From Dehalococcoidia bacterium (GTDB lineage Bacteria > Chloroflexota > Dehalococcoidia > SHYD01): a stretch of DNA of 64,000 bases. Below the pieces are notes generated by a model, which was not told the DNA's origin, did not search any database, and was given only the letters and a program-made list of their open reading frames with translations. Where the stretch lies: contig SHYD01000002.1 of the NCBI GenBank assembly GCA_009692945.1, positions 25,027-89,026 of the forward strand, read 5' to 3'. How positions within the stretch are numbered: the first letter of the stretch is position 1; the number at the start of each line of letters is the position of its first letter. Both the position numbers and the translations under genes were made by a program. This document shows, one piece after another, positions 592-748 of the stretch.

Positions 592-748
592 TTCAGTGTC
601 AGGGGTTCGGGGGTATGAGACACTCCCCTCACCCCATGAAAACACAGGAGAATTCTATTGGGGGGCACCCCACGCTCCCGGCAGAGGGCTGTCGCCCTCG
701 GACACTCCCACTCCTGATCCCGGCCGCCCCTCAACGGTGAACTCTTAC
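592..748 (+). repeat. MITE-like GC-hairpin repeat, type 1, full length
   Basis: TTCAGTGTCAGGGGTTCGGGG...CAGAGGGCTGTCGCCCTCG...CCCCTCAACGGTGAACTCTTAC. Near-identical to 8204..8360(-), 11179..11322(+) and 18433..18584(+). Confidence 0.85.

Follow-up and report, generated by a model that had tools for sequence, protein, structure and literature searches.

Bacterial MITEs are a well-known kind of element, and some of them have been related to particular families of insertion sequences: MITEPsy1 of Pseudomonas syringae is related to IS5 and generates a target-site duplication (TSD) of 4 nt (PMC3189936), and a MITE of Cardinium is related to an element of the IS982 family (PMC9769881). The IS66 family, in turn, has inverted repeats of 20–30 bp that start with GTAAGCG and makes direct repeats of 8 bp (PMC11946415), and one of its single-ORF members of the ISBst12 group, ISDge4 of Deinococcus geothermalis, has GTAACTGCTCAGCA / GTGACTACTCAGCA as its terminal inverted repeats (TIRs), with a direct repeat of 8 bp (PMC12898284). 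Small intergenic repeats have also been described in Deinococcus radiodurans, where the so-called SNRs, of 60–215 bp and several types, are mosaic and show signs of mobility (PMC1978522, PMC11276467).

The repeat family presented here was studied in a window of 64 kb, that is, the whole stretch of Dehalococcoidia DNA that was analysed. Like MITEPsy1 and the Cardinium MITE, its members are small, non-coding, bounded by IS-like TIRs, flanked by TSDs, multicopy and mainly intergenic (PMC3189936, PMC9769881), and they differ from both in their IS66/ISBst12-type tips and in the length of the TSD, which is 8 bp (4 nt in MITEPsy1). They share with insertion sequences of the ISBst12 group (ISDge4 and an IS66-like element of pHTA426) the 12-nt tips (GTAACTGCTCAG, GTAACTACTCAG, GTATCTATTCAG), the imperfect TIRs and the 8-bp TSD; however, they measure about 160 nt and lack a transposase gene, their arms beyond the tip cannot be aligned with those of the IS, and the IS retrieved come from other phyla, a Dehalococcoidia partner not having been found in the searches made. 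The Deinococcus SNRs are likewise mosaic intergenic repeats, a likeness drawn from descriptions only, and the GTAACTGCTCAG tip is also found on ISBst12-type elements of Deinococcus. The explanation that best fits the family, with a probability of roughly 0.85 and judged from sequence comparison, is that its members are non-autonomous MITEs that owe their mobility to an ISBst12-type IS66-family transposase acting in trans.

The window is a chromosomal stretch of 64% GC that holds housekeeping genes (leuS, lysS, sdhA, guaA, purD and hisC), and ten more of its ORFs that were examined are ordinary genes. Its SdhA is 100% identical to a protein annotated as coming from a Dehalococcoidia MAG. A repeat at 592–748 had been described by a sequence-only reading, and it is present as described. 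BLASTN with 592–748 as the query yields nine more matches in the window, of 74–88% identity, an unbiased self-BLAST of the window leads to the identical set of loci, and nhmmer profiles (a type 1 and a type 2 model, both built on aligned full-length copies) recover 16 of 16 loci with E values from 1e-51 to about 3e-4. The tip 12-mer GTAAYTRCTCAG, with at most one mismatch, occurs six times in the window against an expected 0.23, a number reached by none of 100 shuffled sequences. The family thus amounts to 16 copies or fragments, dispersed on both strands, and a single solo terminus, with a combined length of 2,283 nt; this is 3.6% of the window and about one quarter of its intergenic DNA. This high density, together with a modular build in which the arms come in two sets and one module is optional, sets the family apart from MITEs in general. 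The earlier reading was right about a multicopy repeat, which it put at about 20 copies or fragments; the high identity that it saw between copies is only moderate (74–88%), and its statement that gaps above 150 bp nearly always hold a copy was too strong, because in a crude GC3-based gene map 20 intergenic gaps measure 150 nt or more and 12 of them hold one, a density that is still high. A duplication created during assembly was considered and is ruled out because the copies are only 74–88% identical to each other and lie in different flanks.

Full copies measure 153–190 nt and have no capacity to code for a transposase. Their ends had been described as imperfect inverted repeats, and conserved termini do align across copies: the TIRs are imperfect, about 22–27 nt long, start with GTAACTGCTCAG, GTAACTACTCAG, GTATCTwTTCAG or GTAAGAGTTCAC, and follow the consensus GTA(A/T)nnn(Y)TCAG(w)GTy(r)GGGG. 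All the ends, those of type 1 as well as those of type 2, are versions of a single imperfect inverted repeat beginning with GTA(A/T); the tips found in the window are GTAACTGCTCAG, GTAACTACTCAG, GTAATTGCTCAG, GTATCTTTTCAG, GTGTCTATTCAG, GTACGAGTTCAG and GTAAGAGTTCAC, the openings are mostly GTAAC, GTAAG, GTAAT or GTATC, and GTAACTGCTCAGTGTTCGGGGGCC is an example of a stretch of the arm. The core, shared by both subtypes, consists of a C-rich block, a purine-rich tract, GC hairpin 1, CCCCCGGCAG and GC hairpin 2, in that order. The internal GC hairpins noticed at the outset are real, and the division into two subtypes holds as well. When read in the orientation of the core, type 1 starts with GTATCTTTTCAGTGTCAGGGGTTCGG and ends with CCCCTCAACAGTGAACTCTTAC, and type 2, most clearly seen in the related locus L008, starts with GTAACTGCTAAGTCCTGGGGGGC and ends with GCCCCCGAACACTGAGCAGTTAC. 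The subtypes are defined by two sets of arm modules and hybrid copies also occur, which makes the family a modular one.

An optional module of about 26 nt is present in members of both subtypes (16386–16550 and 30789–30978 in the window, and the related loci L006 and L004). This module resembles CCCTTCGnCnnGCTCAGGAC (reverse complement GTCCTGAGCCTGCCGAAGGG) and is placed between CCCCCGG and hairpin 2, at 16430–16470 and 30855–30880 of the window; repeated CGAAGGGC motifs are also found upstream of sdhA in L002, a groundwater metagenome contig. The optional module and these motifs suggest that modules have been shuffled between elements.

Type 1 is represented by four full-length copies. The copy at 585–748 (+, 164 nt, nhmmer E=1.6e-48) has the tips GTATCTTTTCAG and GTAAGAGTTCAC (reverse complement) and lies between flanks, CGTGCCCT / CGGGCCCG, that agree at 6/8 positions; the one at 8204–8367 (−, 164 nt, nhmmer E=7.5e-51) has a TSD of 7/8, TTCCCCGA / CTCCCCGA; the one at 11170–11322 (+, E=3e-42) has a 14-nt internal deletion, a degenerate left tip and flanks that match at 3/8; and the one at 30789–30978 (−, 190 nt, E=9.7e-24) includes the optional module and has flanks with a 6/8 match. 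A further copy at 18437–18584 (+, E=1.2e-27) is type 1-like, with a divergent inner (left) end and the outer tip GTAGGAGTTCAC (reverse complement). Two pieces complete this group: the right-hand 100 nt or so at 4778–4881 (+, E=1.2e-22), whose left side is fused to an unrelated double-hairpin repeat (4714–4776), and a right-end fragment of 67 nt with the tip GTAACAATTCAC at 51001–51067 (−, E=1.3e-15).

Among the type 2 copies, that at 22680–22836 (−) is a full-length element of 157 nt located 66 nt upstream of the start of the sdhA ORF; its TSD, CGGACCTG at 22672–22679 and 22837–22844, is perfect (8/8), and the corresponding site of L002 has no copy. The element at 16386–16550 (+, E=2.7e-37), which carries the optional module, keeps the right tip GCAACTGCTCAG (reverse complement) and has lost the left one; an apparent TSD of 6/8 around it was dropped, its left tip not being homologous to a terminus. 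At 18294–18436 (−, E=3e-39) a copy with the outer tip GTAACTGCTGAG stands head-to-head with the type 1-like copy at 18437–18584, and the orthologous site of L002 lacks both. The element at 40885–41037 (−, E=3.5e-30) has two ends, a partly deleted hairpin 1, a degenerate left tip and the right tip GTAATTGCTCAG (reverse complement), and the one at 52840–52998 (+, E=1.2e-41), between two co-directional genes, has GTAACTGCTCAG (reverse complement) as its right tip and is degenerate at the left one.

The remaining members are hybrid, divergent or incomplete. A hybrid with a type 1-like core was detected by nhmmer at 8062–8194 (+), with the right tip GTAACTACTCAG (reverse complement) and a left tip that is not recognisable; another hybrid or divergent copy, with the tip GTAACAGCCCAG, lies at 24384–24513 (−, E=1.8e-13 / 4.3e-11); a partial copy at 26236–26335 (−, E=4.5e-8) keeps the left arm, the core and hairpin 1; and a divergent relative at 60918–61050 (+, E about 2–3e-4) consists of the core only, with hairpins 1 and 2. 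The solo terminus, GTAACTGCTCAGTCTTCGGG, lies at 36736–36755 (+), and the same 23-nt end is present on the metagenome contig L004.

These limits differ in part from those first proposed. The loci are the same, and several of the ends had to be moved: true termini lie 7 nt outside those listed, the full type 1 copies run from 585 to 748, 8204 to 8367 and 11170 to 11322, the type 2 copy given as 22680–22797 extends to 22836, and that given as starting at 52852 starts at about 52840. The copy given as 40888–40990 runs to 41037, and therefore the supposed solo end at 41017–37 is its own right terminus. Only the 4778–4881 part of a copy placed at 4716–4881 belongs to the family, 4716–4776 being a separate small double-hairpin repeat, and 60918–61050 is kept as a member, albeit a weak one (E about 3e-4).

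One of the checks proposed along with the sequence-only reading was an alignment of the flanks, and it revealed 8-bp TSDs. The 8 nt on either side were compared in 12 two-ended elements from the window and related contigs, with the ends set by alignment of the tips; four of these elements score 8/8, one 7/8 and two 6/8. The mean is 5.5/8 for the 12 elements versus 2.12 for 2,280 offset controls, 0.57% of which reach 6/8 and none 8/8. The perfect duplications are CGGACCTG (window 22680–22836), AACCTTTC (L008, 2055–2212) and, on the related contig L001 (778–941 and 4205–4367), GAGACGGC and CCGCCGGC.

Copy-free sites are provided by L002, a contig of 6.3 kb whose SdhA is 94% identical to that of the window, whose sdh operon has about 86% nucleotide identity and on which no copy of the family was found. 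The gap between the DUF503 and GH99 genes is 13 nt long in L002 and 327 nt in the window, where it holds the 18294–18584 pair; upstream of sdhA, L002 is without the 157-nt copy, and the target region is single, with a small indel nearby. Two orthologous sites are therefore free of copies in L002, which amounts to a presence/absence polymorphism, and such differences between close relatives are possible strain markers. In L003 (21.7 kb, SdhA 80% identical), nhmmer gives one weak fragment match only, and hence, with L002 devoid of copies, the expansion is taken to be lineage-specific.

The family does extend beyond the window. L001 (SHYE01000034.1), a contig of a Dehalococcoidia MAG from Lake Baikal, has three copies in 8 kb with about 80–87% identity, and it was the sole other MAG contig matched when genome contigs were scanned with the 28-nt core. 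A scan of metagenomes with a 20-nt terminus found seven contigs, all of them with short MITE copies and none with a full-length IS that bears the MITE terminus. As copies exist on L001 and on these seven contigs, the family is neither an artefact of assembly nor confined to the window. Units of both types were compared by BLASTN with all PLSDB plasmids, those of D. radiodurans included, and no match was obtained. The MITE-like nature suggested from the sequence alone is thus supported by the termini, the 8-bp TSDs and the copy-free orthologous sites, and it is highly probable that this dense, diverged family consists of genuine MITEs of an uncultured Dehalococcoidia lineage; the family itself is new.

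The same features bear on the idea that the repeats are REP/BIME palindromes, either spread by a RAYT (an IS200/IS605-like Y1 transposase) or kept as binding sites for host factors. REPs have a GTAG head, measure 20–40 nt and make no duplication. The window repeats are, like REPs and BIMEs, intergenic, GC-rich and palindromic, with modules arranged in mosaics, and some of their tips read GTAGGAG, similar to the GTAG head; however, the units of 153–190 nt are several times larger, the TIRs are long (about 22–27 nt), the direct duplications are of 8 bp, most tips are GTAAC, GTAAG or GTATC and not GTAG, and no Y1 transposase or RAYT is present among the ORFs examined. The REP/BIME proposal was rejected on size, long TIRs and TSDs, and we regard it as extremely improbable.

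The question of which transposase moved the MITEs leads to the IS66 family. An element of 1,636 bp on the plasmid pHTA426 of Geobacillus kaustophilus has the tips GTATCTATTCAG / GTAACTATTCAG (longer ends GTATCTATTCAGCCC ... GGGCTGAATAGTTAC), with a perfect 8-bp TSD, GACGAGTT, on either side. Its single ORF, of 485 aa, matches DDE_Tnp_IS66 (PF03050, 1.9e-64) and also zf-IS66, and scores 334 bits against the NCBIfam model “IS66 family transposase” (NF033517), the cutoff of which is 180. Searching with this transposase (tblastn) retrieved 190 plasmid records, and the ends were read for six: a Streptomyces IS has the tips GTAAGCATTCAG / GTAGGCATTCAG and a TSD of 8/8; an Acaryochloris IS, GTTACTGCCCAGGC (GTTACTGCCCAG) and also 8/8; a Bacillus thuringiensis IS, GTAACTACTCAGCT (GTAACTACTCAG) and a TSD that is not perfect; a D. 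wulumuqiensis IS, the left end GTAACTGCTCAGCAGGGGG (GTAACTGCTCAG); an IS of Deinococcus sp. QL22, GTGACTGCTCAG / GCAACTACTCA; and, tentatively, a Pseudanabaena IS, GCAAATTCAGGG. The 12-nt tips of the window MITEs and of the retrieved single-ORF IS66 elements are the same or nearly the same, and so is the length of the duplication; this match over 12 nt holds for the pHTA426 IS and five further IS, the IS66 domain match having been checked for pHTA426. The likeness is limited to the tip of about 12 nt and the TSD length. On the plasmid pCP1 of D. radiodurans (L018), a 2.7-kb segment at 28933–31593 is bounded by inverted GTAACTGCTCAG tips and holds an apparently disrupted IS66-like transposase gene (tblastn 28971–29945) that is unannotated in the PLSDB gene table.

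IS families other than IS66 likewise make 8-bp duplications (for example ISL3, IS256, IS6 and IS1595), and one of them could have moved the MITEs, the GTAA tips being then a coincidence. Such a mover would agree with the failure of the searches made to find a partner IS and with a likeness to IS66 of only about 12 nt. However, GTAACTGCTCAG and GTAACTACTCAG occur exactly, and GTATCTwTTCAG almost identically, in six single-ORF IS66 elements from four phyla, and those elements also show 8-bp TSDs, whereas the other families with 8-bp duplications have differing tips (GG..., GGCTCTT..., GAGAC...). A mover from outside IS66 is consequently very unlikely, and an ISBst12-type IS66 transposase probably is, or was, the driver of these MITEs, to judge by tips and duplications.

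In the mechanism proposed for IS66-driven MITEs, a single-ORF DDE transposase of the ISBst12 group, whose gene lies in another part of the genome or has since been lost, would bind the GTAA-type termini, the element would be inserted at staggered cuts 8 bp apart, and the repair of the gaps after insertion would give rise to the 8-bp direct duplication. The earlier remark that no intact transposase is present agrees with tblastn, which detected no similarity to an IS66-type transposase in the window or in 11 related loci (best E=0.41). The search for a transposase with the same termini, another check proposed at that time, gave none in the window, the 11 related loci or the seven metagenome contigs, and in a protein search for a Dehalococcoidia partner that started from a Deinococcus IS66 transposase the best 120 matches were all of the Deinococcus type. 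No partner IS having been found in the window, the fetched loci or the metagenome contigs, an autonomous partner is therefore postulated, and the prediction follows that an ISBst12-type IS66 transposase is active, or was formerly active, in this lineage. The family may be old and inactive, since its copies are only 74–88% identical and show degenerate tips, missing TSDs and truncations; the identity of the mobilising transposase, its present activity and the role of the internal hairpins are matters that we only infer. No description of MITEs derived from IS66 or ISBst12, or of MITEs in Dehalococcoidia, was found in the searchable literature, and therefore the list of IS families that spawn MITEs would be modestly extended. 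For annotators, the GTAA-type tips and the 8-bp duplication offer a means of masking these repeats.

The internal hairpins raise the possibility that the repeats code for structured non-coding RNAs or act in cis as regulatory RNA modules, whether as stabilisers, attenuators or terminators, and are kept for their RNA fold. The GC hairpins are retained in most copies, and hairpin 1 shows compensatory changes at the second pair below its run of G:C pairs: among 21 copies this pair is G-C nine times, C-G seven times and T-A twice, and only three copies have a non-canonical one. Folding z-scores are modest (−0.3 to −2.8), and many copies lie between co-directional genes, where they would be co-transcribed. 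On the other hand, the compensatory states follow the subfamilies and so represent few independent events; the orientation with respect to flanking genes is mixed and without strong bias, eight forward against five reverse in a hand count on the crude gene map; and the TSDs, together with the copy-free sites of the relative, show insertion as DNA. The sequence-only reading named no repeat or RNA family, and in Rfam no family was matched on a copy at a level of significance, the best match having E=0.07, far below the gathering score, which in the window was reached by tRNAs only. The comparison with Rfam assigned no family to the repeats even at E up to 1. The hairpins lack an adjacent run of T, with a T-rich tract about 8–14 nt from hairpin 1, and a role as intrinsic terminators was rejected, as 0 of 33 terminator-like calls in 1–20000 fall on a copy. 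An RNA function would fit the exaptation of a MITE and does not replace the MITE explanation, and as an account of the family it is decidedly unlikely. The compensatory changes of hairpin 1 nevertheless hint at a structural constraint for which a purely selfish element would have no need, and they leave room for an exapted role.

A related proposal joins both ideas: the internal core, with its purine-rich tract and its two GC hairpins whose stems differ between subfamilies by compensatory substitutions, would be a functional cargo, an RNA or DNA structure of benefit to the host that an ISBst12-type transposase has spread through the intergenic regions of Dehalococcoidia. This is unlikely; if true, the core could be, for example, an element of the 3' end or of the stability of mRNAs, or a protein-binding site, and a process of this kind, driven by that group of IS, could also lie behind the mosaic SNRs of Deinococcus.

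Several features of the neighbourhood of the MITEs deserve mention. Another small repeat, about 63 nt long and with two GC hairpins (GTGAGGG..CCCCTCAC and CCAGCGGG-nnnn-CCCGCTGG, then ACACCCC), is located at 4714–4776, 11093–11155 and 30738–30800, three occurrences in the window against an expected 0.01. Every window copy of it adjoins a MITE, at 4776/4778 it stands in the place of the left half of the MITE, and a related hairpin is found in the MITE-free L002 at about 120–160. This repeat may itself be a tiny mobile or REP-like element, or else a site that is preferred as a target.

The ORF at 7654–8190 encodes an N-terminal fragment of an MFS transporter (positions 14–106 of 347 of Pfam MFS_1), has about 71% DNA identity to part of the full-length MFS gene upstream (6187–7650), and has its last 43 codons or so and its stop codon inside the MITE copy 8062–8194. 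It has the appearance of a gene duplicate that was cut short at a MITE, and MITEs would account for contig breaks and local rearrangements of this sort in such MAGs. Before sdhA, the 22680–22836 MITE lies directly upstream of a promoter-like element, TTGCCT-18 nt-TAAACT, that is conserved with L002 (window 22600–22680), and therefore the insertion has replaced whatever sequence preceded the −35 region. The MITE pair at 18294–18584 is separated from the DUF503 stop codon by about 32 nt at 18585–18616 (CCCGGCTCGTTGGCCGGACCGAGGTCGTACTC) that are absent from L002; this stretch ends in CGTACTC, which resembles CGTACTGA at the DUF503 stop, and it may be what an earlier insertion or excision left behind at this site.

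Further along the window, adjacent genes for Ku (PF02735) and an ATP-dependent DNA ligase (PF01068/PF04679) at 41754–43720 form a bacterial NHEJ pair that adjoins a DUF72 gene. Two pairs of diverged paralogous coding sequences with about 73–74% DNA identity, 56778–57479 with 59266–59967 and 37340–37917 with 52015–52592, are both unrelated to the MITE family.
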